Positions 1 to 33,615 of a stretch of DNA of 64,000 nucleotides are shown piece after piece; within the stretch, counting starts at the first letter, position 1, and each line of letters begins with the position of its first letter. The DNA is from Escherichia coli O127:H6 str. E2348/69 (GTDB taxonomy: Bacteria > Pseudomonadota > Gammaproteobacteria > Enterobacterales > Enterobacteriaceae): assembly GCF_000026545.1 (NCBI RefSeq), contig NC_011601.1; one strand, written 5' to 3'. Below the pieces are notes generated by a model. The model was given only the letters and a program-made list of their open reading frames with translations. It was not told the origin of the DNA and did not search any database. The translations under genes were made by a program, and so were the position numbers.

Positions 1-1300
1 ATTCAGCCTGGCCTGGCAGATTCTGTTTGCTATGGTGCTGGGCATTCTCCTGGGAAGCTACCTGCACTACCATAGCGACAGCCGCGACTGGCTGGTCGTC
101 AATTTGCTCTCTCCGGCGGGTGATATCTTCATCCATCTGATCAAAATGATTGTTGTGCCGATTGTGATCTCCACGCTGGTGGTGGGTATCGCGGGTGTTG
201 GTGATGCCAAACAGCTCGGGCGTATTGGTGCGAAAACCATTATCTACTTCGAGGTGATCACCACCGTCGCCATCATTTTGGGGATCACTCTGGCGAACGT
301 CTTCCAGCCTGGTGCCGGGGTGGATATGTCGCAGCTGGCGACCGTCGATATCTCGAAATATCAGAGCACTACGGAAGCGGTACAAAGCAGTTCCCACGGC
401 ATTATGGGCACGATTTTGTCGCTGGTGCCGACGAACATCGTGGCGTCGATGGCGAAAGGCGAAATGCTGCCGATCATCTTCTTCTCGGTGCTGTTTGGTC
501 TGGGGCTTTCATCCCTGCCCGCGACGCATCGTGAACCGCTGGTGACCGTTTTCCGCTCCATCTCTGAAACCATGTTTAAAGTGACTCACATGGTGATGCG
601 TTATGCGCCGGTGGGTGTGTTTGCGCTGATTGCGGTGACGGTGGCTAACTTTGGTTTCTCTTCTCTGTGGCCACTGGCGAAACTGGTGCTGTTGGTGCAT
701 TTCGCCATTCTGTTCTTCGCGCTGGTAGTGCTGGGAATTGTGGCGCGCCTGTGCGGGTTAAGTGTCTGGATCCTGATTCGTATTCTGAAAGATGAGCTGA
801 TTCTGGCGTACTCCACTGCCAGCTCTGAAAGCGTGCTGCCGCGAATTATTGAGAAGATGGAAGCCTACGGAGCACCGGCGTCGATCACCAGTTTCGTGGT
901 GCCGACCGGTTACTCTTTTAACCTTGATGGTTCGACGCTGTATCAAAGTATTGCCGCTATTTTCATCGCGCAGTTGTATGGCATTGACCTGTCCATCTGG
1001 CAGGAAATCATTCTGGTGCTGACGCTGATGGTGACCTCGAAAGGGATTGCTGGCGTGCCGGGCGTGTCGTTTGTGGTGTTGCTGGCAACGCTGGGCAGCG
1101 TAGGGATCCCGCTGGAAGGTCTGGCGTTTATTGCCGGTGTTGACCGTATCCTCGACATGGCGCGTACTGCGCTGAACGTGGTGGGTAATGCGCTGGCGGT
1201 GCTGGTGATTGCCAAGTGGGAACACAAATTTGACCGTAAGAAAGCGCTGGCTTATGAGCGTGAAGTGCTGGGCAAATTTGATAAAACTGCGGATCAGTAA
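1..1300 (+). CDS. gltP: glutamate/aspartate:proton symporter, 5' end truncated by window edge
   Basis: Reading frame open from position 2; translation matches the DAACS-family transporter GltP; track ORF 32..1300 is the internal part. Confidence 0.93.
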   Translation, partial: FSLAWQILFAMVLGILLGSYLHYHSDSRDWLVVNLLSPAGDIFIHLIKMIVVPIVISTLVVGIAGVGDAKQLGRIGAKTIIYFEVITTVAIILGITLANVFQPGAGVDMSQLATVDISKYQSTTEAVQSSSHGIMGTILSLVPTNIVASMAKGEMLPIIFFSVLFGLGLSSLPATHREPLVTVFRSISETMFKVTHMVMRYAPVGVFALIAVTVANFGFSSLWPLAKLVLLVHFAILFFALVVLGIVARLCGLSVWILIRILKDELILAYSTASSESVLPRIIEKMEAYGAPASITSFVVPTGYSFNLDGSTLYQSIAAIFIAQLYGIDLSIWQEIILVLTLMVTSKGIAGVPGVSFVVLLATLGSVGIPLEGLAFIAGVDRILDMARTALNVVGNALAVLVIAKWEHKFDRKKALAYEREVLGKFDKTADQ

Positions 1301-1309
1301 CTGAAGATT

Positions 1310-1328
1310 GCCGGGGTTATCCCCCGGC
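1310..1328 (+). terminator. GC-rich hairpin just after gltP stop (gccgggg-ttat-ccccggc), candidate terminator
   Basis: Inverted repeat read directly; the downstream T-tract is weak. Confidence 0.4.
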
Positions 1329-1337
1329 AATGTGTTG

Positions 1338-1376
1338 ATGCCTGATGCGACGCTTGCCGCGTTTTATCAGGCCTAC
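1338..1376. repeat. REP (repetitive extragenic palindrome) unit
   Basis: gcctgatgcgacgc...ttatcaggcctac motif typical of E. coli REP elements. Confidence 0.6.
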
Positions 1377-1377
1377 C

Positions 1378-2067
1378 TTAACCGTTAGTTAATTTTTCAA
1401 ACTCTTCACACCCGGTATCAAACCCTTCCATACAGCTCAGATTCAACCAGTGCAGCGCCTTTTGTTTGTTCTTCTCGATAAAACCCTCTTCACCGTTTAA
1501 GAACATCATTCCCGCCCAGTATTCGGAATAACCGGTTCGGGAAATCGCGGAGCTACGTTTGAAATACCAGGTTGCTTTGTCATCGTCGGCCTTAATGCCC
1601 ACGCCGTTGGCGTAAATCAAACCAAGCAGCATTTGGGCATCGACGGCAGAGTCGTTCTCCAGATCTTCCGAGGCGTTTTCTAACAGCGAAATCGCCTTTG
1701 GATAATCCGGTTTACCCGCTTGCGTATTTACCAGAATATGCGCCAGCGTTACTTCACCTTCTTTACTGCCCGCTTGCGCTGCTTTCTCGGCAAGCACTTT
1801 TGCTTGTGGATAGTCCAGACTGACCGGATTGGTGATTTTGATCTGCGCCAACAGCGCGCAGGCATCGGCATCACCGCTGTCGGCGGCTTTCTGTGCCCAA
1901 TATTCGGCTTTGCTCAAATCGCCGGAGCTAAACCAGCTGTCGGCAAGAAAATATTGTGCGCGTCGGTCTCCGGCCTCTGCTGCCTTTAAATACTGGCTGC
2001 CAGGCTCGGAGTCGTTCGCGTGGGCAAAGAATGTCAAAAATAACATCAAAGTGATAATTTTTTTCAT
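1378..2067 (-). CDS. yjcO: Sel1/TPR-like repeat protein with signal peptide
   Basis: Track ORF 1378..2121 begins at TTG; ATG at codon 19 (MKKIITLMLFLTFFAHA) gives a signal peptide followed by Sel1-like repeats. Confidence 0.85.
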   Translation of the reverse strand: MKKIITLMLFLTFFAHANDSEPGSQYLKAAEAGDRRAQYFLADSWFSSGDLSKAEYWAQKAADSGDADACALLAQIKITNPVSLDYPQAKVLAEKAAQAGSKEGEVTLAHILVNTQAGKPDYPKAISLLENASEDLENDSAVDAQMLLGLIYANGVGIKADDDKATWYFKRSSAISRTGYSEYWAGMMFLNGEEGFIEKNKQKALHWLNLSCMEGFDTGCEEFEKLTNG

Positions 2068-2177
2068 TTTGATAATGAAGTTTGGTAGGGGAGAGACAGT
2101 ATAAAGTGTTCGGGTGGACAAAAAAACAACTGTAAAAAGACCTGAAAGCAGAATGAATTAATGCAATGTCAGGTTTT

Positions 2178-2882
2178 TTAATCCATCCGATGTTCCCCCT
2201 TTTCCATGGCGTCGCGATCAAAAAATCGCTGAATTTTTCCCTCGGACATCAATGCCGCTCGATCAGACATATGCGCGATGACATCGGCATCGTGACTGAC
2301 CAGCAGATATGTCATTTGGTGTTCCAGCTTAAGTTGATTCAACAAATTAAGGATTTCCGCTTGTACCGACATATCCAACGCCGAGGTGGGTTCATCCAGC
2401 AGAAGAAGTTGTGGTCGTAACAACAGGGCGCGAGCAATAACCACACGTTGCCGTTGACCACCGGAAAGCTGGTGTGGGTAGCGACGAGCGGCGTCGAAAG
2501 GCAAGCCAACCTGTTCCAGTGCAGTCTGGACGCGTTTTTCTATTTCTCTTTCGCCACGAATTTTGAGTGGTTCAGCCAGCGTTCGCCACAGAGTATGATT
2601 GGGATGCAACGAGGCATAGGGATCCTGAAACACCATTTGCACATTGCGGCGGAGATCGCCCTGAAAACGCATTCCTGGTTTGATGGTGTGCCCAAACAGT
2701 GACACCTGACCGTGCCAGTCGCGCTGTAATCCAGCAATTACGCGCAAAATCGTGGATTTTCCGCAGCCTGATTCGCCAATTAAACTAAATGTCTCTCCGG
2801 CATTAACCGAAAAACTGGCGGCAGAAACTGCGGTTTTCTCAGCAAAAGTCACCTGTAAGTGATTAATTTCAACAATCGTCAT
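2178..2882 (-). CDS. ABC transporter ATP-binding protein (short NikE/DppF-like), last gene of accessory ABC operon
   Basis: Walker A GESGCGKST, signature LSGGQRQR, Walker B LLLLDEPTSALD; ATG start overlaps the upstream ATPase gene by 14 nt. Confidence 0.9.
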   Translation of the reverse strand: MTIVEINHLQVTFAEKTAVSAASFSVNAGETFSLIGESGCGKSTILRVIAGLQRDWHGQVSLFGHTIKPGMRFQGDLRRNVQMVFQDPYASLHPNHTLWRTLAEPLKIRGEREIEKRVQTALEQVGLPFDAARRYPHQLSGGQRQRVVIARALLLRPQLLLLDEPTSALDMSVQAEILNLLNQLKLEHQMTYLLVSHDADVIAHMSDRAALMSEGKIQRFFDRDAMEKGEHRMD

Positions 2883-3705
2883 GGTATTTCTCCGGCGTCA
2901 TTGCCGTCCTGTCCAGCGTCGGCAGCATCTGCCCGTAAGTTTGTGCATTTGGGCGGCAAGTCCACAGTGTGCGCGTGTAAGGATGCGTTGCTGTAGGTAG
3001 CGCAGCAGCGTGCATTTCATCCACCTTATTTCCCTGATACATCACCAGCACCCGATGGCAAAATTGGGCAACTAATGGCAGGTCGTGACTGATCAGCAAC
3101 ATTGCCATCTGACGTTGTTCACACTGGGTAACCAGCAGTTCCAGAATCTGATTACGCAGGCGCACATCCAGTGCTGATGTTGGCTCATCGGCAATCAATA
3201 CCCGGGGATCGTTGATGAGCGCAATTGCAATCATCACTCGCTGCCCCATGCCGCCAGAAAGTTCACGAGGATAGCTTTGCAGTACTCGCGTATTGAGGCC
3301 GACAGCCTGAATTGCGGTGTTTATTTTCTCTTCTTTCTCGCGGCGGTTCAGACGTTGATGGAGCGTAAGCGCCTCTTCCAGTTGCGCTTTTACTGTCTTT
3401 ACTGGATTAAGCGCGTAACGCGGATCTTGCAATACCATCGCGATATCGTTACCGCGCAACTGTTGCCATCCACGCGCGTTAAGGGTGAGTGCATCACGCC
3501 CCAGAATGTTAAGTGTGTCCGCGGTTACTACACCCGGTTTACGCACCAGCCCCATCAGGGCGCGGGCGGTCATGGACTTACCTGAACCCGACTCACCGAC
3601 CAGCGCCAGACGTTCATTGCCTAATGTAAAACTGACATTGTTGACGACCCGGGACTCCGGATAATCGACGCAGAGATTGTTGATACTAAGACGTGAGTCA
3701 GTCAT
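2869..3705 (-). CDS. ABC transporter ATP-binding protein (short NikD/DppD-like)
   Basis: Walker A GESGSGKS, signature LSGGMGQR, Walker B LIADEPTSALD; start taken at the internal ATG (MTDSRLSINNL), since the track's 20-codon upstream extension overlaps the permease gene. Confidence 0.85.
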   Translation of the reverse strand: MTDSRLSINNLCVDYPESRVVNNVSFTLGNERLALVGESGSGKSMTARALMGLVRKPGVVTADTLNILGRDALTLNARGWQQLRGNDIAMVLQDPRYALNPVKTVKAQLEEALTLHQRLNRREKEEKINTAIQAVGLNTRVLQSYPRELSGGMGQRVMIAIALINDPRVLIADEPTSALDVRLRNQILELLVTQCEQRQMAMLLISHDLPLVAQFCHRVLVMYQGNKVDEMHAAALPTATHPYTRTLWTCRPNAQTYGQMLPTLDRTAMTPEKYHDDC

Positions 3706-4531
3706 GTTGAGGCTCCAGAACATCGCGCAAGCCATCACCCAGCAGATTAAAGGCCAGACTGGCAATTAAGATAATTGCGCCGGGAGCGGCGGCAATCCAC
3801 CATTGATCAAAAATGACCTGCATACCGTCGGCGATCATGGCTCCCCATTCCGCCATTGGCGGGCGAGCACCAAGCCCAAGAAAACCCAGGCCAGCAGCCG
3901 CCAGAATGATACCCGCTAAATCCAGCGCCAGACGGACAATGGCAGATGGCAGGCACAATGGCAAAATATGACCAGCCAGCAGACGCCTGCCGCGGATGCC
4001 CATCATTTCTGCGGCGGCAAGATAATCACTGTGTCGCAGACGTTGGATCTCACTCCGTGCCTGACGCGCATAAGCAGGCCAGGTGGTTAATGCCAGCGCC
4101 AGTGCGCCGTTAACCAGCCCCGGCCCCAGCATGGCAACAAAAGCAAAAGCCAGAATTAAACGCGGCATTGACATTACTACGTCAGTAAAACGCATCAGCA
4201 CGCGTTCCAGCCAGCCGCCGTAGTACCCGGCTAAAATGCCAATCAGCAGACCGACCGGGAGTGTAATGATTGTCACCAATGCCACCAGCCCCAGTGCCGG
4301 GCGGCTGCCGTAGATTAAACGTGAAAGTAGGTCTCGCCCGTAACTGTCAGTGCCGAGCCAGTGCTGACGACTCGGTGCTTGTAACCGCGCCGCCGCATCC
4401 TGCCAGTTAGGATCGTGAGGTGCCAGCCACGGCGCGAAGAGCGCAATTAGCATCAATAACAGGATAATTATCAACCCGCAAAACGCGGCGGGTGAATGGC
4501 GTAAACGGCGTAAAAAGAGAAACATCGGCAT
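3698..4531 (-). CDS. ABC transporter permease (DppC/NikC-like)
   Basis: 277 aa hydrophobic multi-helix protein in operon position; ATG start. Confidence 0.88.
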   Translation of the reverse strand: MPMFLFLRRLRHSPAAFCGLIIILLLMLIALFAPWLAPHDPNWQDAAARLQAPSRQHWLGTDSYGRDLLSRLIYGSRPALGLVALVTIITLPVGLLIGILAGYYGGWLERVLMRFTDVVMSMPRLILAFAFVAMLGPGLVNGALALALTTWPAYARQARSEIQRLRHSDYLAAAEMMGIRGRRLLAGHILPLCLPSAIVRLALDLAGIILAAAGLGFLGLGARPPMAEWGAMIADGMQVIFDQWWIAAAPGAIILIASLAFNLLGDGLRDVLEPQHD

Positions 4532-5580
4532 CAGCGTAACCTCGGATCGGTCAGCCGGACCAGCAGGTCGGTTAAGTTATTTATCAACACAAAGCAGACG
4601 CCAATCAGCAGCGTTCCTCCCATGATTGCTGTGGTATCACCCGCGAAGAGCGCTGTAGTGAGGTAGCGCCCAATACCTGGCCATGAAAAGACGGTTTCTG
4701 TCAGTACCGCGCCTTCCAGCATTGATGTATAGGCGAGGGCGATAACGGTGAGTAAGGTGCCGCGAATGTTGGGTAAAACATGACGTAGCAAAATTGTCAT
4801 CTCGCTGGCCCCTTTGGCGCGCGCCAGCAGAATATATTCTTTATTCATTTCGCCAAGACAGACGGAACGAGTCAGGCGCGTAATACTGGCGAGCGAGAAG
4901 TACGCCAGTAATAAAACCGGAAGTATCAAATGGTTGATTGCATTGGTAAATGCCTCGCGATCGCCAGAAAGCCACGTATCAATCAGCGCAAATCCGCTGC
5001 GGGGTTCTATGGTGAATTGATAAATATCATCCAGCCTGCCCGGCCCGGCACTCCATTGCAGTCTGGCGTAGAACAGCGCCAGCATCAGCAGACCAAGCCA
5101 AAAAACAGGGACGGAATTTCCCAGTAGAGTTAATGTTCGCACGGTGAAATCCAGCGGAGAACCGACATAACGGGCGCAAAGTACACCCGCAATGACGCCG
5201 ACAACAGCACCGACAATAAGCGCCAACGTTGCCAGTTCAATGGTCGCCGGGAATGCTGATAGCAAGTCCTGGAGTACCGGTTGCCCGGTGGAGCTGGCGA
5301 TGCCCAGATCGCCGTGTGCCAGATTCATCAGGTAATGCCAGAACTGGACGGCTAACGGTTGATCCAATCCTAACTGGTGGCGTACCTGATCATAGGTGGA
5401 CTGGCTGGCGTGATCGCCAACGATTTGTAGTACGCGATCGACCGGTGAGAGAGCCGAAAGCGCAAAGGTAATCAGCAGCAGGCCGAGTAGCGTCAGAGCA
5501 ACGGTAAACAGCCCTTGCAACAGCGCGAGCAGAGGGCGTTTGCCTCGCCATCTCGCGCGAGTGGAAAAAACGACAGACAT
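4531..5580 (-). CDS. ABC transporter permease (DppB/NikB-like)
   Basis: Hydrophobic permease; start taken at ATG MSVVFSTRAR, as the track extends 31 codons upstream; stop overlaps the next gene's start. Confidence 0.85.
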   Translation of the reverse strand: MSVVFSTRARWRGKRPLLALLQGLFTVALTLLGLLLITFALSALSPVDRVLQIVGDHASQSTYDQVRHQLGLDQPLAVQFWHYLMNLAHGDLGIASSTGQPVLQDLLSAFPATIELATLALIVGAVVGVIAGVLCARYVGSPLDFTVRTLTLLGNSVPVFWLGLLMLALFYARLQWSAGPGRLDDIYQFTIEPRSGFALIDTWLSGDREAFTNAINHLILPVLLLAYFSLASITRLTRSVCLGEMNKEYILLARAKGASEMTILLRHVLPNIRGTLLTVIALAYTSMLEGAVLTETVFSWPGIGRYLTTALFAGDTTAIMGGTLLIGVCFVLINNLTDLLVRLTDPRLR

Positions 5581-5607
5581 GATCTTTCCATACAGTGATA
5601 AATCAGC

Positions 5608-5632
5608 GGCTGGCCTGCAATACAGGCCAGCC
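5608..5632 (-). other. Intercistronic stem-loop between binding-protein gene and first permease gene
   Basis: 10-bp inverted repeat ggctggcctg / caggccagcc with 5-nt loop, read directly. Confidence 0.5.
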
Positions 5633-5679
5633 CTGGTACCGCGCCCGGTAATATGGCTGGACGCGAGTTGCATACAGGG

Positions 5680-7248
5680 TTATTTGGTTACCTGATCAAA
5701 CCAGACCATATCGGCATTCAACCCTTGTTGATACCCCTGCACATTATCACGCATGACAATTTGCGTTTTGCCTTGATCAATAAAGACATACGGGGAACTA
5801 CGTTGTAGTTCTTGTTGCATTTTCTTATACAAATCAAGACGTTTAGCGCTATCAGGTTCAGCGATGGCCGCCAGCGTTTCTTTGTTCAGTTCCGGGATTT
5901 TCCAGCCGTTTAACCCGGCAACGGTGCTGGATTTGCCATCGTTATAGGCGAAAGAGCTGGCGTTGGAATGTGCGTCAAAATAATCAGGCAACCACATACG
6001 AATGGCCCCCTGATGCTGGTGGGCGCGAACGCGAGAGTAGACCTGACTCCCTGCGGCTGGCAGCAAATCAACTTTTACACCGCCCTGAGCAAAGCTGGCC
6101 TGAATTGACTGCGCGATGGTAATAAATGGCGGTTTATTTTCGACATCAAGCGTGAAGTGCGGGTCTTTGATTCCGGCTTTAGCGAGGATCTCTTTTGCTT
6201 TGGCTGGATTAAAGGTAAACGGTGTTTCTTCCAGTGCTCCAGGAAAGCCCACGGGCAGGAAACTTTGATGGGTAAAATATTGTCCTTTTAAGAGATTTTT
6301 GGTGATGCCGTCGTAATCGACCAACCAGCGAGCGGCCTCCCAGAACGCAGGATTACTCATCAGCGGGTTATCCTTGTTACCGGTATTGAAGGCCAGGTAG
6401 TTCTGTTCGGCGGAGGCAATGCTCATCACTTTTACGCCAGGTTTACCCTGTAATGCATCGATTTGATCGGCTCCCAGATCACGAGCCATATCAGCATCAC
6501 CTTGTTGGATCAGCAGGCGACGCGTTGCCGGATCGGGAACATTTTTGATGATGACGTTTTTCAGTTTCGGGGCGCCGGTTGGTGAGCTGGCGTTGGCTTC
6601 CATCACGATGGCCTGATGCGGTTGGTAAGTACGCATTTTAAACGCGCCGCTGCCAGCGGAATGCATCTTCAGCCATTCATTACCAAAGTCGTTATTTTTG
6701 GCGTTTGGCGCAACCAGCTTCTCGTCAACAATTGAGGCGATTGGTGTGGAGAGAATATTCAGTGCCAGCGCCGGGCTGACGTCGGCACTCCATTGCACCT
6801 GGACGGTATGGTCATCGATTTTCTTCAACTGGCTGGCGATATTTTCCGGCTGCCATCCCAGCACATTGAGAATAAACGCACCGGATTTATTCAGTGTGAC
6901 AGCCCGGACATAAGAGTAAATCACATCTTCCGGGCGTACCGGATTACCAGAGGCAAATTTCGCATCGCTTTTCAGTTTTATGGTTAGCGTTTTGGCTGCT
7001 GGGTCAGCCTGCCAACTTTCCGCCAGAATCGGAGTGATTTTCGTCGGATCATTACGGTCCGGTTGTACTACGCGTTGATACAGACTTGGTACAGTCTGAA
7101 TACTTGAGAGTTCATTAGCTTCTGCCGGGTCCAGACTCACAATATCATCCAGTCCCTGGGCTACAACCAACGTATTAGGCGGTGTAGCGGCAACGGTTGT
7201 GGCGGAAATTGTGCTTAAAACCAGTAAAGGTAATAGTTTTTTAATCAT
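5680..7248 (-). CDS. Periplasmic substrate-binding protein, family 5 (OppA/DppA/NikA-like)
   Basis: 522 aa with N-terminal signal peptide MIKKLLPLLVLSTISATTVAA; first gene of a five-gene ABC operon; ATG start. Confidence 0.9.
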   Translation of the reverse strand: MIKKLLPLLVLSTISATTVAATPPNTLVVAQGLDDIVSLDPAEANELSSIQTVPSLYQRVVQPDRNDPTKITPILAESWQADPAAKTLTIKLKSDAKFASGNPVRPEDVIYSYVRAVTLNKSGAFILNVLGWQPENIASQLKKIDDHTVQVQWSADVSPALALNILSTPIASIVDEKLVAPNAKNNDFGNEWLKMHSAGSGAFKMRTYQPHQAIVMEANASSPTGAPKLKNVIIKNVPDPATRRLLIQQGDADMARDLGADQIDALQGKPGVKVMSIASAEQNYLAFNTGNKDNPLMSNPAFWEAARWLVDYDGITKNLLKGQYFTHQSFLPVGFPGALEETPFTFNPAKAKEILAKAGIKDPHFTLDVENKPPFITIAQSIQASFAQGGVKVDLLPAAGSQVYSRVRAHQHQGAIRMWLPDYFDAHSNASSFAYNDGKSSTVAGLNGWKIPELNKETLAAIAEPDSAKRLDLYKKMQQELQRSSPYVFIDQGKTQIVMRDNVQGYQQGLNADMVWFDQVTK

Positions 7249-7422
7249 ATGCTTCCCAATCCCTAAAATTACTTTGAGGTTATTAATATGCTATCAGACG
7301 GGGGTTCGCTGCATTAATCGCGCCAGAATATCCCGTTAATAGAACGAGTTAAACGGTCGATGATTTCTCACCTTACCGAAATTTTGTTTATCAAATGTAA
7401 AGTATTATTACGTTAGGCCGCG

Positions 7423-7450
7423 ATGAGAATTGAGTAAAGATAATTCTCAT
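7423..7450. promoter_or_regulatory. Perfect 9-bp inverted repeat (atgagaatt N10 aattctcat) upstream of the ABC operon, candidate operator
   Basis: Palindrome read directly, about 175 bp upstream of the binding-protein start; no known regulator assigned. Confidence 0.3.
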
Positions 7451-7533
7451 TTGCAATCGTGACAGGAATAGAAGAACAACCGAGAAGACGTCGCTAATAA
7501 CCAGAATGGGCTGGTTTGACTGCGCAGGTATGT

Positions 7534-7570
7534 ATAAAAAAATCCGGAAACAGAGAGTCGTTTCCGGATT
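7534..7570 (-). terminator. Rho-independent terminator of fdhF
   Basis: Stem aatccggaaac / gtttccggatt followed by a T-run on the minus strand, ~50 nt after the fdhF stop. Confidence 0.8.
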
Positions 7571-7622
7571 GATACAAAGGCGTTGGGTAATATCGCCGCT
7601 TTTAACGTGAGTTTACGCGGTA

Positions 7623-9770
7623 TTACGCCAGTGCCGCTTCGCGCAGGCGAGTTTTCAACTTGTTGTACTCGTCAATCACGTACTGCTCGGCGGCGCGCTG
7701 ATCGGCGATCGGCTCGACGCGCACGGCGCAGTATTTGTATTCCGGCGTTTTCGTAATCGGGCTTAAGTTTTCGGTAACCAGCTCGTTACAGGCACCAATC
7801 CACCACTGGTAGGTCATGTAAATCGCCCCTTTGTTCGGACGATCGCTGACCTGCGCACGGGTGATAATTTTGCCTTTACGCGAGTGCACCCAAACCAATG
7901 CCTCATCTTCAATACCCAGACGTTTGGCGTCTTCGGTATTGATTTGTGCGTAGCCAGGTTCATCAGCCAGCGCCGCCAGTGCCGCACAGTTACCGGTCAT
8001 CGAACGGCAAGAGTAGTGACCAACTTCACGCACCGTTGACAGTACCATCGGGTACTCGTCGGTGAGTTTGTCGATTGGCGCGACCCAGTCGCAGGTGAAG
8101 AACTGCGCCAGACCGTTCGGGGTATCAAACTTCTCTTTAAACAGATAAGAAGTCCCCTGATCGGCATCTGAAGTATCCCGGCAAGGCCACTGAATGAAGC
8201 CCAGTTCGCCCATTTTTTCGTAAGTCGCACCGTAGAAATCCGGGCACAGATGACGCAACTCATCCCAGATCTCCTGGGTGTTGTTGTAGTGCATCGGATA
8301 ACCCATACGGGTGGCGATTTCACTGATAATCTGCCAGTCCGTTTTCAGATCCCATTTCGGTTCAACCGCTTTGAAGAAACGCTGGAAGCCACGGTCAGCC
8401 GCAGTAAACACGCCTTCATGCTCGCCCCACGACGTTGACGGTAAAATAACATCCGCCGCCGACGCGGTTTTGGTCATAAAGATGTCCTGAACGATGACCA
8501 GTTCCAGATCTTCAAAGGCTTTACGTACTGCCGACAGCTCCGCGTCAGTTTGCAGCGGATCTTCGCCCATAATGTACGCGGCACGCACTTCGCCATGCGC
8601 TGCGCGGTGCGGCAGCTCGCTGATGCGATAGCCGGTATGAGCAGGCAGGCTTTCCACGCCCCAGGCTTTGGCGAATTTCTCGCGGTTAGCCGGATCTTTC
8701 ACGTACTGGTATCCCGGATACGTATCCGGCAGCGCGCCCATATCGCAGGCACCCTGCACGTTGTTCTGACCACGAACCGGGTTTACACCCGCATGCGGCT
8801 TACCGAGGTTACCAGTCAGCATCGCGAGGCTGGTCAGAGAACGCACGGTTTCCACGCCCTGGTAGAACTGGGTTACACCCATGCCCCACAGGATGGCGGC
8901 GCTTTTCGCCTGGGCATACATCCGCGCCGCCTGACGAATCTCACTGGCGCTGACGCCGGTGATATCTTCAACCGACTCCGGCGTGTAGCCTTCAACGATT
9001 TTACGATACTCTTCAAAGCCTTCTGTACGGGAAGCGACGAAAGCTTTGTCGTACAGGTTTTCTTCAATAATGACATGGCCCATCGCATTCAACAGCGCGA
9101 TGTTCGAGCCGTTTTTCAGTGCAATGTGCATGTCAGCAATGCGCGCGGTTTCAATTTTGCGCGGATCGCAGACGATAATTTTCGCCCCGTTACGTTTAGC
9201 GTTAATTACGTGATTCGCCACGATTGGGTGGGAATCCGCCGGGTTGTACCCGAAAACGAACACTAAATCGGTATTATCAATTTCGTTAATAGCATTGCTC
9301 ATTGCGCCATTACCGACCGATTGGTGCAGACCTGCAACCGATGGGCCGTGTCAGACACGAGCGCAGCAGTCAACGTTATTGGTACCAATAACGGCGCGCG
9401 CAAATTTTTGCATTACATAGTTGGTTTCGTTACCCGTACCACGCGAGGAGCCGGTCGTCTGGATGGCATCCGGACCGTACTTCTCTTTGATGGCGCTCAG
9501 GCGCTCGGCAACGTAATTCAGTGCCTCATCCCAGGAAACAGGTTCGAGTTTGCCGCCACGCTGGCGACGGATCATGGGGGTTTTCAGGCGCGGGGTCAGG
9601 ATCTGGGTATCGTTAATGAAATCCCAGCCATAATAACCCTTCAGACACAGGGTACCCTGGTTGGTTTTCCCCTGCGCTGCCTCCGCCCGGACGATTTTGC
9701 CGTTATCGACGACCAGGTTGATTTTGCAACCTGATGCGCAATAGGGGCAAACCGTGACGACTTTTTTCAT
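7623..9770 (-). CDS. fdhF: Formate dehydrogenase H, selenocysteine-containing molybdoenzyme
   Basis: Track ORFs 9351..9770 and 7623..9302 are in the same frame across a single TGA; 716 codons total; N-terminal Cys cluster CPYCASGCK. Confidence 0.95.
9305..9353 (-). other. In-frame UGA selenocysteine codon (9351..9353) with downstream SECIS region
   Basis: TGA flanked by ...DCCARV and HGPSVAGLHQSVGNG...; bacterial SECIS elements lie immediately 3' of the UGA. Confidence 0.85.
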
Positions 9771-9810
9771 CGGTCTCGCTCCAGTTAATCAAATCACGCA
9801 TACGCGCTCT

Positions 9811-9827
9811 CGACTACAGTATGCATC
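9811..9827 (-). promoter_or_regulatory. Sigma-54 (-24/-12) promoter of fdhF
   Basis: Minus-strand TGGCAT-N5-ATGCA matches the TGGCAC-N5-TTGCA spacing, about 40-55 nt upstream of the fdhF start. Confidence 0.75.
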
Positions 9828-9899
9828 TTTTATGCCACATTTTATTTGGGGTCATTCCCTGATATTACGGGCACTATTTATTCAAAACTCTGACGAAAA

Positions 9900-9955
9900 A
9901 CAGGCTGTCGTCAGTTTTGACGTGACGAAACGAAATACCGCGTGACAGCCATCAC
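9900..9955 (-). promoter_or_regulatory. Putative enhancer (FhlA upstream activating sequence) for fdhF
   Basis: Inverted-repeat-rich segment (tgtcgtca / tgacgtgacg / cgtgacagcc) about 80-130 bp upstream of the sigma-54 element; assignment by position only. Confidence 0.4.
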
Positions 9956-9967
9956 GCGGCAGACATT

Positions 9968-11434
9968 TTATTTTTTCTCGACGACGGGAGCCGCCTGATA
10001 CCCGCCGCCCAGCGATTTCATCAACTGAATGCTTTGGATCACCCGGCGGCTGTCCAGCATCAGTAATGACATCTCTTCGGCAAGTACTGGCAACCGGGCT
10101 TCAGTGGCCTGTAAGCGGCTGGTTAAGCCGCGTTGATAGGCGGCCTCGGCAGCGCGCTGGGTGAAGCGCGTTGCTTCCACGCGTTCAGCCTGCATCTCTC
10201 GCTCGTCGTTGAGCGTTTGCAGACGCGTGCCGTTGACGGCAACGTCGCGCACCGCATTCAGCACTGACTGGTTGTAACGTTCAATCATCATGTTGCTGGC
10301 GGCGCGAATGCCTTCGAGATTGGCATTCAACCGTCCACCGTCAAACAGCGGCAATTTCAGACCCGGGATAAAGTTGAACTGGCGACTGGTTTTTTTGAAT
10401 AAGGTATCCAGGTGGATAGAATCCAGGCCGAAAAACGCTTTGATATCAAAGCTCGGGTAGAACAACGCCCGCGCGGAATCCACCTGATCTAATGACGCCT
10501 GAACATACCAGCGCATCGCTTGCAGATCCGGGCGTCTGGCGAGCAACTCATAAGAGAGTGTCGCCGGAATACCGGTCTGGACTCGTGGTAATGCCACCGG
10601 TTTGATCTCCGGCATATCGCTGGCTCCCGCGCCAATCAATGCGCGCAGAGATTCCCGCGTTTCAGTGATTTGCCCTTTGACGGCAGCAATTTGTTTATCG
10701 ACCGCCAGAATCTGTGCCCGCGCGCCGTGGAAAGGCACTTGCGCTTCCAGACCGTGCGCCACTTTACTCTGGTGCGCTTTCACCGCGTAATCAATCACAT
10801 CGCGAGTTTGTTCTAACAGATCGAGCATCTGATAGCTGGCCTGCATACTGTAATAAAGCTGCGCTACGCCCGTGGTCAGCGATAGCTCTACTGCTGCGGT
10901 TTCTGCCAGCGCGGCATTATGCGCGCCAATGGCGGCAGCAACCGCTGAGCGATGCACACCCCACAAATCGAGATCCAGTCCGGCAAACAAACCGACTGTG
11001 GCTTCCGTATAGTACGGCCCGTCCATCCCCAGTGCGGGCGCATCCATCGCATAAGGGCTTAAAAAGCCGTTCGCCGAGACACGTTGGCGGTTGAGCATCC
11101 CTAACGCTGCGACCTGTAATTGTGAACCGGCATCTAACAAATCGGCCTGCGACTGCGCTTTTTCTTCCCGCAGTTTCGCTTCGGCGAGGGTGTGTGAACC
11201 ACTTAGCGTCTGTTGGACCAGTGCATCCAACTGCGGGTCATTGAGTTGTTTCCACCACTGCGCCTGCGGCCAACCGGAGCTGGCAAGATGAATATCATCG
11301 GCCAGTTTGATTTGTTCCGGTTTGAGCTGTTGATGAGGCGCAGAATCCTTACGTACCAGGGCACAGCCGGAAATCAGCGTCGTGCTGCCGAGAATGCTGC
11401 ACAACAGCAGGCGTGAAAGTTGACGATTGATCAT
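9968..11434 (-). CDS. mdtP: Outer-membrane efflux channel (TolC/OprM family) of putative efflux pump
   Basis: 488 aa with lipoprotein-type signal (LISGCA); downstream of mdtO. Confidence 0.88.
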   Translation of the reverse strand: MINRQLSRLLLCSILGSTTLISGCALVRKDSAPHQQLKPEQIKLADDIHLASSGWPQAQWWKQLNDPQLDALVQQTLSGSHTLAEAKLREEKAQSQADLLDAGSQLQVAALGMLNRQRVSANGFLSPYAMDAPALGMDGPYYTEATVGLFAGLDLDLWGVHRSAVAAAIGAHNAALAETAAVELSLTTGVAQLYYSMQASYQMLDLLEQTRDVIDYAVKAHQSKVAHGLEAQVPFHGARAQILAVDKQIAAVKGQITETRESLRALIGAGASDMPEIKPVALPRVQTGIPATLSYELLARRPDLQAMRWYVQASLDQVDSARALFYPSFDIKAFFGLDSIHLDTLFKKTSRQFNFIPGLKLPLFDGGRLNANLEGIRAASNMMIERYNQSVLNAVRDVAVNGTRLQTLNDEREMQAERVEATRFTQRAAEAAYQRGLTSRLQATEARLPVLAEEMSLLMLDSRRVIQSIQLMKSLGGGYQAAPVVEKK

Positions 11435-13482
11435 TGCGTGGCTCCTTGTACCTGTTCCGTGGCGGGCGTTAATGCCGGGGCTGTCCAGTCTGGCAAGCGG
11501 GCGAAAAGCTGGCAGACGTGTTGCTCCTGTTTTAATAAGGTCGGCAGGATGGCCTGCGAGGCGGGTGTTTCTTCAAGCGTTATTTGAGGAGAACGGCTGA
11601 GTGCAGTTGCCAGACCGGCGGCGTATTTCTCCAGTGCGTCGGCAAACTGACCTGCTCTGTCCGGCTGTAGTGCGTTATCCAGAGCCTGCGCCGAGTTCCA
11701 GGTTGCATCCCAAGCGTGAAGAATATCGCGGCCCTGACGAATAACCGTTTGCGAACGTTCAATCAGTAAAGCGCGTTCTTCGCTGTCCAGTTGACGCTCC
11801 AGCGCCACGCGTTGGCACATCTCTTCACAGGCATTAAACGCCGCATGCAGACCTATGCGAATTTGCAGATAAGTGCGCAGAGCCGTGACTTCCTGCTGGC
11901 GTGGGATCCGCATTACTTTACTCAACATACCCAGCGCGCCAGCCAGTTTTTGCGGCAGCGTGCGCGCTTCACTTTCAGGCCAGACAAAGGTGTAAATCAC
12001 CGCGGACACCACGGTACCAATGATGATACCCAGGGCGCGATCGCGAATTTCCACCAGGTCGTACACCGGGCCAAAAACGTTTTCGAGCGTGGCGAGCGCG
12101 AAGGTGACCACCATCTGTGTGCCGATATAAGAAGAGCGTTCAGAGCTGGTGGCAATCCATGCGCCCAACAGGAAAATCGGTGCCAGCACAAACAGCAATT
12201 CGACAATATTGTCCAGCCAGGGCATGACCAGCAGCGTGAATAACAGCGCCAGAATTGCACCGCAGAAGGCACCGCCAAAACGCAGCGCCATTTTCTGATA
12301 CGACGAACCAACATTCGGGTTAGCGACGATCACGCAGGTCAGCATACAGGTGTGAATGCCTTCCCAGTCCACGCCGCTGTAGAAGGTGTAACAGATCAAA
12401 CAGGCGAGCAGCGTTTTTACCGCGTAGCGCATATAGTCTGGATTGGTAAAAGCGTCGGCGACCATTGATGGCGGTTTGGCGGCGGGCGTTGGCGGCGTAT
12501 TCGGGTCCATCTGACCCAGTTGCAATAACGTCTGGCAGATATTCTCCAGGTTACATTCCCGTGCCGCCATCGCTTCACTTTCACTGATCCGCCAGTCGCT
12601 TTGCCAGCACTGACCTTCGGTAATGGAATGCTGCAGCTTGTTGATTTCTGAAGCTAATTTTTGTCGGAATTCAATAATTGCCTGAGAATCAGCAAAAGAG
12701 GTGGGATCGTAGCGATTCAGCGTCGAGTAAATGTAGGTTACCGTTGTCACGCAGCTTTGCCACCATGCGCTCTGGGTTCGCCAGTTGGCATCGTCCGCGA
12801 GGCAAAAGACATTGAGTTTTTGCAGCGCCAGCGCCTCTCTTTCAATCCGCGTTTCGGGTAGCGGTGCGAGGCTGTCCGTCAGGTGGCTAATGGCATCATC
12901 AAGCCGATCATTAAGCGCCTGATGCATCTGCGTAATGGCACGACTGGGAAACCACAGCACGCCGATTAACGTCATCAGCAAGGTTGGATAGAGGCCAACA
13001 ACGATACACCAGAGCGTTAAGCGCACGACCACTTCCGGATAGTCGAGCATGGCGGGGAAGGTTTGCCCGTAAATAGCGACAATGGCGACGGCGAAAAAGA
13101 CCAGCCCCAACCGATGGGTGCGCATCAAAAACATACCGCCCATCAGGATCGGTCCGGCGATGATCAATCGGATCAACGGTTCGCCGTATGACCATTTGTA
13201 GATCAAAAACAGGCTGCCGATCTCCAGCATCGTGGCGACCACAAACAAGATCGCCACAAATTTGGTGTAAAACGCGTTGGACTGAATACCGTAAAACAGC
13301 ACTGCCAGCGATAACGCCACAAAAGGGATCTCAAAAGTCATCGAGATCAGAATCACCAGCAGGCAGCCTACCCAGAGTTGCATAGTCTGCGGCACGCGGC
13401 CTGGTCGCCGCTCGCTTAACTCTTCATGAAAGAACGCCAGCAGCCTGACCACCGGTAATGGCAGGGAGTTGAGCGCGCTCAT
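11431..13482 (-). CDS. mdtO: Inner-membrane efflux component (AaeB/fusaric-acid-resistance family)
   Basis: 683 aa polytopic membrane protein; 4-nt overlap with mdtP. Confidence 0.88.
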   Translation of the reverse strand: MSALNSLPLPVVRLLAFFHEELSERRPGRVPQTMQLWVGCLLVILISMTFEIPFVALSLAVLFYGIQSNAFYTKFVAILFVVATMLEIGSLFLIYKWSYGEPLIRLIIAGPILMGGMFLMRTHRLGLVFFAVAIVAIYGQTFPAMLDYPEVVVRLTLWCIVVGLYPTLLMTLIGVLWFPSRAITQMHQALNDRLDDAISHLTDSLAPLPETRIEREALALQKLNVFCLADDANWRTQSAWWQSCVTTVTYIYSTLNRYDPTSFADSQAIIEFRQKLASEINKLQHSITEGQCWQSDWRISESEAMAARECNLENICQTLLQLGQMDPNTPPTPAAKPPSMVADAFTNPDYMRYAVKTLLACLICYTFYSGVDWEGIHTCMLTCVIVANPNVGSSYQKMALRFGGAFCGAILALLFTLLVMPWLDNIVELLFVLAPIFLLGAWIATSSERSSYIGTQMVVTFALATLENVFGPVYDLVEIRDRALGIIIGTVVSAVIYTFVWPESEARTLPQKLAGALGMLSKVMRIPRQQEVTALRTYLQIRIGLHAAFNACEEMCQRVALERQLDSEERALLIERSQTVIRQGRDILHAWDATWNSAQALDNALQPDRAGQFADALEKYAAGLATALSRSPQITLEETPASQAILPTLLKQEQHVCQLFARLPDWTAPALTPATEQVQGATQ

Positions 13483-21384: not shown

Positions 21385-21511
21385 AAATAACCTCTCTGCA
21401 CGAAATATCGTATTATTGCCTGATGGGCTACACTTATCAGGTCTACGTTCAGGTTATTTTGTTGGCCGGATAAGACACTTCATTAGCATCACTATCCGGC
21501 ATCATTCAGTT

Positions 21512-28204: not shown

Positions 28205-28289
28205 GTCGGATGCGACGCTGATGCGTCTTATCCGACCTACGGGGAGCGCATTTGTAGGCCGGATAAGGTGTTTACGCCGCATCCGGCAC
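28205..28289. repeat. Pair of REP units between phnL and phnK
   Basis: gtcggatgcgacgc...cttatccgacctac and gtaggccggataagg...gcatccggca motifs. Confidence 0.7.
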
Positions 28290-33510: not shown

Positions 33511-33526
33511 GTTTGGCTCCGGTCTG

Positions 33527-33614
33527 TAGGCCGGATAAGGTGCTTGCACCGCATCCGGCATCAACGTCTGCACATTGTCGGATGCGACGCCGGGGCGTCT
33601 TATCCGACCTACGA
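33527..33614. repeat. Pair of REP units between phnD and phnE
   Basis: gtaggccggataagg...gcatccggca and gtcggatgcgacgcc...ttatccgacctac. Confidence 0.7.
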
Positions 33615-33615
33615 T

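Follow-up and report, generated by a model that had tools for sequence, protein, structure and literature searches.

Introduction

The classic experiments on intercistronic REP elements, carried out on malE–malF and hisJ–hisQ, are reportedly those of Newbury et al. in 1987 and Stern et al. in 1988 (with Higgins). REPs located after dppA, thiB, mglB, artJ, and proV have been described, with the 3′–5′ exonucleases being blocked (PMC10100675). In the gltIJKL operon, early termination gives rise to a monocistronic transcript of the binding-protein gene, gltI (PMC9438474). The spacer between gltI and the permease gene gltJ contains there a terminator stem-loop belonging to SroC, a conserved Hfq-bound RNA of 163 nt with a proper terminator and targets in trans. 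The concept of selective RNA processing and stabilisation (SRPS; PMC8219983) comprises stable stem-loops situated inside an operon at the 3′ terminus of the cistron required in larger amounts, the free energy of the stem predicting the stoichiometry of the products.

Here we describe a stem-loop, called hairpin B below, located in the corresponding position of an ABC transporter operon of E. coli. Like the REPs of malE–malF, hisJ–hisQ, phnD–phnE, and alsB–alsA, it lies in a spacer of ca. 100 nt after the binding-protein gene and before the genes for the membrane and ATPase components. Intercistronic REPs and hairpin B are both stable GC-rich stem-loops, and the effect proposed for them is the same, i.e., a higher level of the upstream than of the downstream message. 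Unlike REPs, hairpin B lacks the REP consensus, occurs once per genome, is a perfect and not an imperfect palindrome, and is more stable than any REP of the 64-kb stretch analysed here. It shares with the SRPS stem-loops their stability and their location within an operon, behind the cistron of which more is required; SRPS itself is an operational term resting on transcript data, and hairpin B is a candidate for it by sequence. Hairpin B is most likely a non-REP example of a well-known and ordinary arrangement of ABC transporter operons.

The operon and its genomic island

The window, i.e., the whole stretch of 64 kb analysed here (its 501-nt part 5400..5900 is 100% identical to strain E2348/69), carries a five-gene operon (2178..7248, Table 1) constituting an accessory island between yjcO and fdhF. 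The island is present in 1043 of the 5426 complete E. coli genomes (ca. one-fifth), including E2348/69, ST131, APEC O1, and ATCC 25922; a search of the literature for the island (yjcO, fdhF, ABC transporter) found nothing relevant. The first gene codes for a periplasmic substrate-binding protein matching Pfam PF00496 at E = 1e-68, while its NCBIfam matches all fall under their cut-offs; its nearest solved structures are of the DppA type (E ~ 1e-26). It is followed by the gene of a DppB-like permease within one minus-strand operon, in agreement with the flanking genes named in the original prediction, which was made from the DNA letters of the region.

The spacer between these two genes is the sole non-overlapping junction in the operon, all the later junctions being overlaps. 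At the 3′ end of the operon (2068..2177, minus strand) there is a weak terminator-like structure, CCUGA...UCAGG followed by UCUUUUU, in a spacer with a minimum free energy (MFE) of −11.3 kcal/mol (z −1.4). Because the structure at the operon end is weak, the strongest structure of the operon is an internal and not a terminal one.

Upstream of the operon, ca. 175–200 nt before the start of the binding-protein gene (7248), lies a perfect 9-bp inverted repeat, ATGAGAATT-N10-AATTCTCAT (7423..7450, minus strand), kept exactly in Escherichia albertii and in the allele of E. coli 14EC007 described below. The repeat belongs to the promoter region of the island operon and resembles an operator site of a dimeric regulator; the half-sites resemble those of Fur (TGAGAAT / ATTCTCA), but their spacing is wrong. 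The neighbouring fdhF gene (7623..9770) is listed as an open reading frame of only 559 aa (7623..9302) vs. the annotated 2148 nt, which we take to be due to its in-frame TGA codon for selenocysteine. The fdhF terminator is composed of an 11-bp hairpin and U5 (7541..7570).

Table 1. Coordinates in the window of the operon genes and of the elements of the binding protein–permease spacer
Feature	Position	Strand	Description
SBP_bac_5 periplasmic substrate-binding protein gene	5680..7248	−	First in the operon; 522 aa; Dpp/Nik/Gsi-like; WP_000592279.1 (PGAP)
Intercistronic spacer	5581..5679	−	99 nt
Hairpin A, weaker upstream stem-loop	5640..5665	−	Centroid fold; CGCGUCC...GGGCGCG, 7–9 bp, 8–12-nt loop
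Hairpin B	5604..5635, core 5608..5632	−	10 perfect bp and a U.G pair; 3 bp added across a bulged G
G-AUUUAU segment directly 3′ of the stem	5598..5604	−	Weak U-tract and GA↓UUU match to the RNase E core RN↓WUU
Weak Shine-Dalgarno-like GGAAAG	5584..5589	−	Separated by 3 nt from the permease ATG (5578..5580); kept in E. albertii
DppB-like permease gene	4531..5580	−	349 aa; PGAP annotation
DppC-like permease gene	3698..4531	−	Same operon
Two ATPase genes	2869..3705, 2178..2882	−	Same operon

The binding protein–permease spacer

The original prediction placed a hairpin in a 100-nt gap after the binding-protein gene, between it and the permease gene. The placement proved right, the gap is 99 nt long, and the strand, which the prediction had not given, is the minus one. 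The whole spacer folds at an MFE of −42.5 kcal/mol (z = −3.6) and contains two stem-loops. Hairpin A, the weaker one, begins 14 nt past the stop codon of the binding-protein gene, and hairpin B follows it, succeeded by a short AU-rich segment and the leader of the permease gene. The stem of hairpin B is not paired with the Shine-Dalgarno (SD) sequence or the start codon in either the MFE or the centroid fold, and an alternative pairing over a longer distance, CCAUAU/GUAUGG, is not kept in E. albertii. A promoter scan of the minus strand of the spacer revealed no internal promoter-like site.

A start of the permease gene at the in-frame ATG 5673, giving a 380-aa open reading frame that runs through the spacer together with the hairpin, was considered and rejected in favour of the annotated ATG (5580). 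The frame from ATG 5673 is open across the spacer also in E. albertii. The ten substitutions found past this ATG in comparison with E. albertii fall on codon positions 1, 2, and 3 five, two, and three times, respectively (counted by hand), and all the orthologs begin the permease at the annotated ATG, preceded by an SD-like motif; the upstream start was rejected because of the lack of a third-position bias and because of this usage in the orthologs.

On the plus strand the core of hairpin B reads GGCTGGCCTG-CAATA-CAGGCCAGCC, a perfect 10-bp inverted repeat with a 5-nt loop in which eight of the ten pairs are G-C, exactly the GC-rich stem that had been predicted. The genes being on the minus strand, the transcribed form is its reverse complement, GGCUGGCCUG-UAUUG-CAGGCCAGCC. 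At the RNA level, the stem gains a loop-closing U.G pair, for a total of 11 bp and a loop of 3 nt (AUU), and three further pairs form across one bulged G, so that the extended form comprises 14 bp. Over 33 nt the folding energy, a calculation that the prediction had proposed as a check, amounts to −25.7 kcal/mol, with z = −4.7; none of 200 shuffled sequences was equally stable.

Hairpin B is also exceptional for its surroundings. Its pattern gives a single match in the window, vs. 0.00 expected, and still a single one when three mismatches are allowed. Among 42,644 sliding 35-nt folds from both strands of the window it ranks first, with −26.5 kcal/mol vs. a mean of −5.8 (sd 3.4), and every true REP of the window is less stable. 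Among the remaining perfect hairpins with 10 bp or more in the window are terminator-like ones at gene ends, e.g., after gltP and fdhF.

Relation to REP elements

REPs are imperfect palindromes of the GCCGGATGCGGCG...CGCCTTATCCGGCCTAC type, and the window was searched for them with the pattern GGATGCGNCG-N3-9-CGNCTTATCC. Three REPs with the GGATGCG...CTTATCC signature were found (at 28208, 33580, and 36136); the signature is absent from hairpin B. The location of hairpin B is that of REP/BIME elements, extragenic and intercistronic within one operon. It is not dispersed, since the spacer (99 nt) and the hairpin stretch (37 nt) each have one place per genome (median 1, highest 2, at E ≤ 1 and at E ≤ 10, in 5426 genomes), with no partial copies of hairpin B at E ≤ 10. 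The assignment of hairpin B to the E. coli REP/BIME elements was therefore rejected, there being neither the signature nor dispersed copies. A search of Rfam with the region 5300..5900 at E ≤ 10 yielded a sole match, to a nematode snoRNA model (E = 5.3, 12.9 bits vs. a gathering score of 60), and a search of viral contigs for the hairpin B palindrome with a free loop gave 0 matches.

The window makes it possible to compare hairpin B with other operons in which the binding-protein gene comes first. The phnD–phnE spacer (33511..33615) contains a canonical REP pair (−50.6 kcal/mol, z −6.0), and the alsB–alsA spacer (21385..21511) REP-like hairpins (z −4.4), so that every binding-protein-first junction in the window is structured. 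A canonical REP is also present in the phnK–phnL spacer (28208..28233). The original prediction regarded the architecture as typical of ABC operons, and this is borne out by the REP hairpins of phnD–phnE and alsB–alsA as well as by the orthologous operons described below.

Possible termination and processing signals

As in terminators, hairpin B is a GC-rich stem-loop on the transcribed strand (11–14 bp, −25.7 kcal/mol), and it ranks first in a scan of positions 1..12000 for terminator-like structures, the scan being a permissive one. Like the fdhF terminator, it combines a GC-rich stem with a short loop and a U-containing tail. The same top rank is what one would expect if hairpin B were purely a leaky Rho-independent terminator, the expression ratio being set in transcription without processing or mRNA stability, which we consider possible but rather doubtful. 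Early termination at gltI–gltJ is a precedent for it (PMC9438474), several orthologs carry a canonical hairpin with a U-run in the same slot, and the perfect hairpins at the ends of gltP and fdhF are of the terminator-like kind.

The tail tells rather against pure termination. With a U-tract of ca. 7–9 nt directly after the stem as the criterion, the extended stem is followed by AUUUAUCA, having 4 U in 8 and 3 consecutive ones, vs. 6 in 8 for the fdhF terminator; the tail GCUGAUUUAUCA differs from that of canonical Rho-independent terminators, which have at least 6 U in 8 and are located at the operon end, whereas hairpin B lies inside the operon. In E. albertii the tail is weaker still (AUUUCU), and in many orthologs the slot holds REPs devoid of a U-tract.

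The segment after the stem also resembles a processing site. The RNase E core motif has been defined as RN↓WUU, and the pentamer GA↓UUU is the maturation site of ArcZ (PMC5222698). GA↓UUU following the stem of hairpin B matches this motif, a degenerate 5-mer expected by chance ca. once per 64 nt, and there are two further RN↓WUU matches in hairpin loops, including the loop of hairpin A (AUAUU). The sequence is consistent with GA↓UUU being an RNase E site, a short motif of this kind being weak evidence.

Published transcript data for EPEC E2348/69 were also consulted. The list of 133 premature condition-dependent 3′ termini (PMC10687069, Supplementary Data 5) contains no entry near the locus; the operon is probably silent in the conditions of that list. 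Among the EPEC Hfq RIL-seq entries listed, none carries one of the tags searched for, E2348C_4401, 4402, and 4404–4407, the island locus tags having been extrapolated from gltP, which is E2348C_4400.

Conservation within Escherichia

Hairpin B is carried by the E. coli and E. albertii lineages only. Of 1044 E. coli records, 1041 share exactly the same 37-nt stretch comprising it, and the informative comparison is that with E. albertii and with E. coli 14EC007. The latter strain has an E. albertii-like allele of the island (L002 4431..9500), with a spacer 88.8% identical to that of the window and with a frameshift in the last ATPase gene.

Compared with E. albertii, spacer positions 1–43 differ at 10 of 43 sites (0.23), while positions 44–99, comprising hairpin B and the permease leader, differ at 1 of 56 (Fisher p = 9e-4). 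The four-fold degenerate sites differ at 0.25 in the binding-protein gene and 0.22 in the permease gene, and by this yardstick the first part of the spacer drifts at the neutral rate. In the 33 nt of the extended stem there are no substitutions vs. ca. 7–8 expected neutrally (0.77^33 ~ 2e-4). Over its first 300 nt, the permease gene is 90% identical to that of E. albertii; because the gene beyond the conserved block is diverged again (by 10%), the block is not a patch of recent recombination. These substitution patterns show that purifying selection acts on hairpin B and on the leader of the permease gene, the constraint on hairpin B being assessed in two lineages only, E. coli and E. albertii. 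None of the 14 pairs of hairpin B varies between them, and since the hairpin is invariant, it displays no covariation. No intermediate lineages were found in which covariation could be sought: proteins with 90–93% identity (P0002, P0003, P0008) are encoded on E. coli contigs whose spacers are the known variants.

The conserved block extends unbroken from the hairpin to the ATG, and the part between the stop codon and the hairpin is neutral, which would also be compatible with hairpin B being an element of the permease leader, i.e., a 5′ stem-loop guarding the processed permease/ATPase message from RNase E, or one tuning the access of ribosomes to the weak ribosome-binding site 15–20 nt downstream. 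For such a role the RN↓WUU match in the loop of hairpin A, upstream of hairpin B, would be fitting. It is an unlikely reading, considering that the ribosome-binding region would be conserved in any case, that the stem does not pair with the SD sequence or the start codon, CCAUAU/GUAUGG being lost in E. albertii, and that the slots of the orthologs hold REPs and terminator shapes, known 3′ elements.

The neutral drift of the first part of the spacer bears on another alternative as well, in which hairpin B is the terminator of a regulatory RNA derived from the 3′UTR, an sRNA or sponge of the SroC kind released from the message of the binding protein. Typical Hfq-binding 3′ ends have a U-tail longer than that of hairpin B. 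The position is exactly analogous to that of SroC in the gltI–gltJ spacer (PMC9438474), and hairpins A and B would together make a compact two-hairpin RNA. Whereas SroC is conserved, bound by Hfq, and properly terminated, the candidate body with the seed, upstream of hairpin B, here evolves neutrally and not as a conserved seed, and the U-tail is weak and short in comparison with typical Hfq-binding 3′ ends. Given, moreover, the lack of an Rfam match and the absence of the island tags, with their extrapolated numbering, from the EPEC Hfq RIL-seq entries listed, we see a very slim chance of such an sRNA.

Hairpin A is located in the fast-evolving part of the spacer, and its pairing is kept between E. 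coli and E. albertii through the changes G-C→U-G, U-G→C-G, A.C→G-C, and G-C→G-U. G.U pairs are possible on the mRNA strand only, and in these two lineages they point to a structure at the RNA level. The same pairs in its neighbour argue against hairpin B being a DNA palindrome bound by a dimeric regulator, or a cruciform, that controls an internal permease promoter. The perfect inverted repeat, symmetric on both strands, would suit an operator; nevertheless, GC-rich arms of 10 bp separated by 5 nt are characteristic of RNA hairpins and not of operators, no promoter-like site lies in the spacer on the minus strand, and the unrelated hairpins in the slots of the orthologs fit a structural and not a sequence-specific role, making an operator function extremely improbable.

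The same slot in orthologous operons

A scan of species-representative genomes combined with protein look-ups provided 19 further operons with the binding-protein gene followed by the permease gene. Their binding proteins are 72–98% identical to the query, and their spacers range from 21 to 185 nt and are mostly not alignable. Counting E. coli, the slot is structured, i.e., filled with a hairpin, a REP, or a terminator-like element, in 19 of the 20 operons, with mostly unrelated sequences. E. albertii has the same hairpin as E. coli. In Kluyvera there is a hairpin of ca. 20 bp (−37 kcal/mol) with a U-rich tail, in Proteus one of 12 bp followed by CUAUUUUUUG, in Kosakonia one of 9 bp followed by UUCUUUC, and in Yersinia mollaretii a different hairpin. 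REP-type palindromes or REP pairs occupy the slot in Klebsiella, Raoultella, Trabulsiella, and several Enterobacter strains, and another type of repeat in Buttiauxella. The sole exception is Yokenella, whose 21-nt spacer is unstructured and by which the structure of the slot is judged not to be obligatory. In a strict local test, comparing the best hairpin within 45 nt with 100 dinucleotide shuffles, only 12 of the 20 spacers were significant individually, being matched by at most five shuffles; the spacers with REP pairs are inconspicuous in this test because they are GC-rich and fold over a long range.

In Serratia an orthologous binding protein, 77% identical, is encoded by an orphan gene (L028 1501..3069) with no permease or ATPase genes after it; the gene is flanked by two genes with an aspartate/ornithine carbamoyltransferase domain, the second one being followed by a gene with a PyrI domain.

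The REPs have clearly been inserted into the slot in Klebsiella, Raoultella, and Trabulsiella, and the slots filled with REPs could be sites where insertions are tolerated and not a product of selection. Hairpin B might by analogy be a neutral relic, a palindrome left by an element of mobile or REP-like nature, or inherited from the island's donor genome, and tolerated in the sole non-coding gap of the operon. The alignment of the E. coli spacer with those of the Klebsiella group by MAFFT sets a part of it against the second Klebsiella REP; the placement is ambiguous, reliable alignment being confined to GCTGAT and the leader next to the ATG. A relic appears quite unlikely for an element found once per genome across 1043 genomes and without partial copies at E ≤ 10, with no REP signature, no matches in viral contigs, and not a single substitution in 33 nt vs. 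the ca. 7–8 expected.

The sequence GCUGAU..CACUGUA after the hairpin and the leader look homologous to those of the Klebsiella oxytoca group (L010, L020, and L006 vs. 5581..5610), in which the spacer contains a REP pair enclosed by an outer stem. The base of the hairpin B stem might conceivably be ancestral, a REP pair having been inserted into its loop; the alignment is ambiguous on this point.

Proposed role of hairpin B

Hairpin B displays the traits of the SRPS and malE–malF-type elements with respect to both structure, being a stable stem-loop 3′ of the upstream cistron in a co-directional operon, and constraint, with 1/56 vs. 10/43 changes and a structured slot in 19 of 20 operons. It probably decouples the message of the binding protein from those of the permeases and ATPases, acting as an exonuclease barrier and/or as a leaky terminator. 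Because the U-tract is weak, we lean slightly towards processing combined with an exonuclease barrier and away from pure termination; leaky termination and RNase E cleavage may be compatible as two routes to the same 3′ end. The structure, its position and exceptional stability, the purifying selection on it, and the recurrence of structured elements in the slot are observations; the formation of a 3′ end, its processing, and the ratio of expression are inferred.

Transcription started at the promoter in front of the binding-protein gene would, in the mechanism proposed, enter the spacer, where the nascent RNA would fold with ca. −26 kcal/mol. Some polymerases would halt at the weak U-tract by leaky intrinsic termination, or the full-length message would be cleaved by RNase E within the unpaired AU-rich segment that follows the stem (GA↓UUUAU). 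The upstream part, ending with a stable hairpin and with almost no 3′ tail, would block PNPase and RNase II and accumulate, while the downstream RNA for the permeases and ATPases, having a weak ribosome-binding site and no protection at its 5′ end, would be scarce. The outcome would be an excess of the binding protein over the membrane components. A monocistronic binding-protein transcript such as that found for gltI in the SroC system (PMC9438474) is predicted here as well.

A more elaborate version can be imagined, in which the slot has been persistently selected for any strong structure and the non-REP hairpin of Escherichia constitutes, together with the leader, a processing module (an RNase E site with an exonuclease block) that sets free a stable two-hairpin, trans-acting, SroC-like sponge RNA; we give it a slim chance.

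The slot in the orthologous operons offers a clean natural experiment, being occupied, depending on the genus, by a unique hairpin, by single or paired REPs, or by a true terminator, which suggests that these elements are functionally interchangeable there. Those working on the transporter of the island should expect a transcript comprising the binding-protein gene only and should spare the spacer when constructing polar or non-polar deletions. As a single element hairpin B matters little; it would be one more case of ABC transporter operons favouring the binding protein over the membrane complex.
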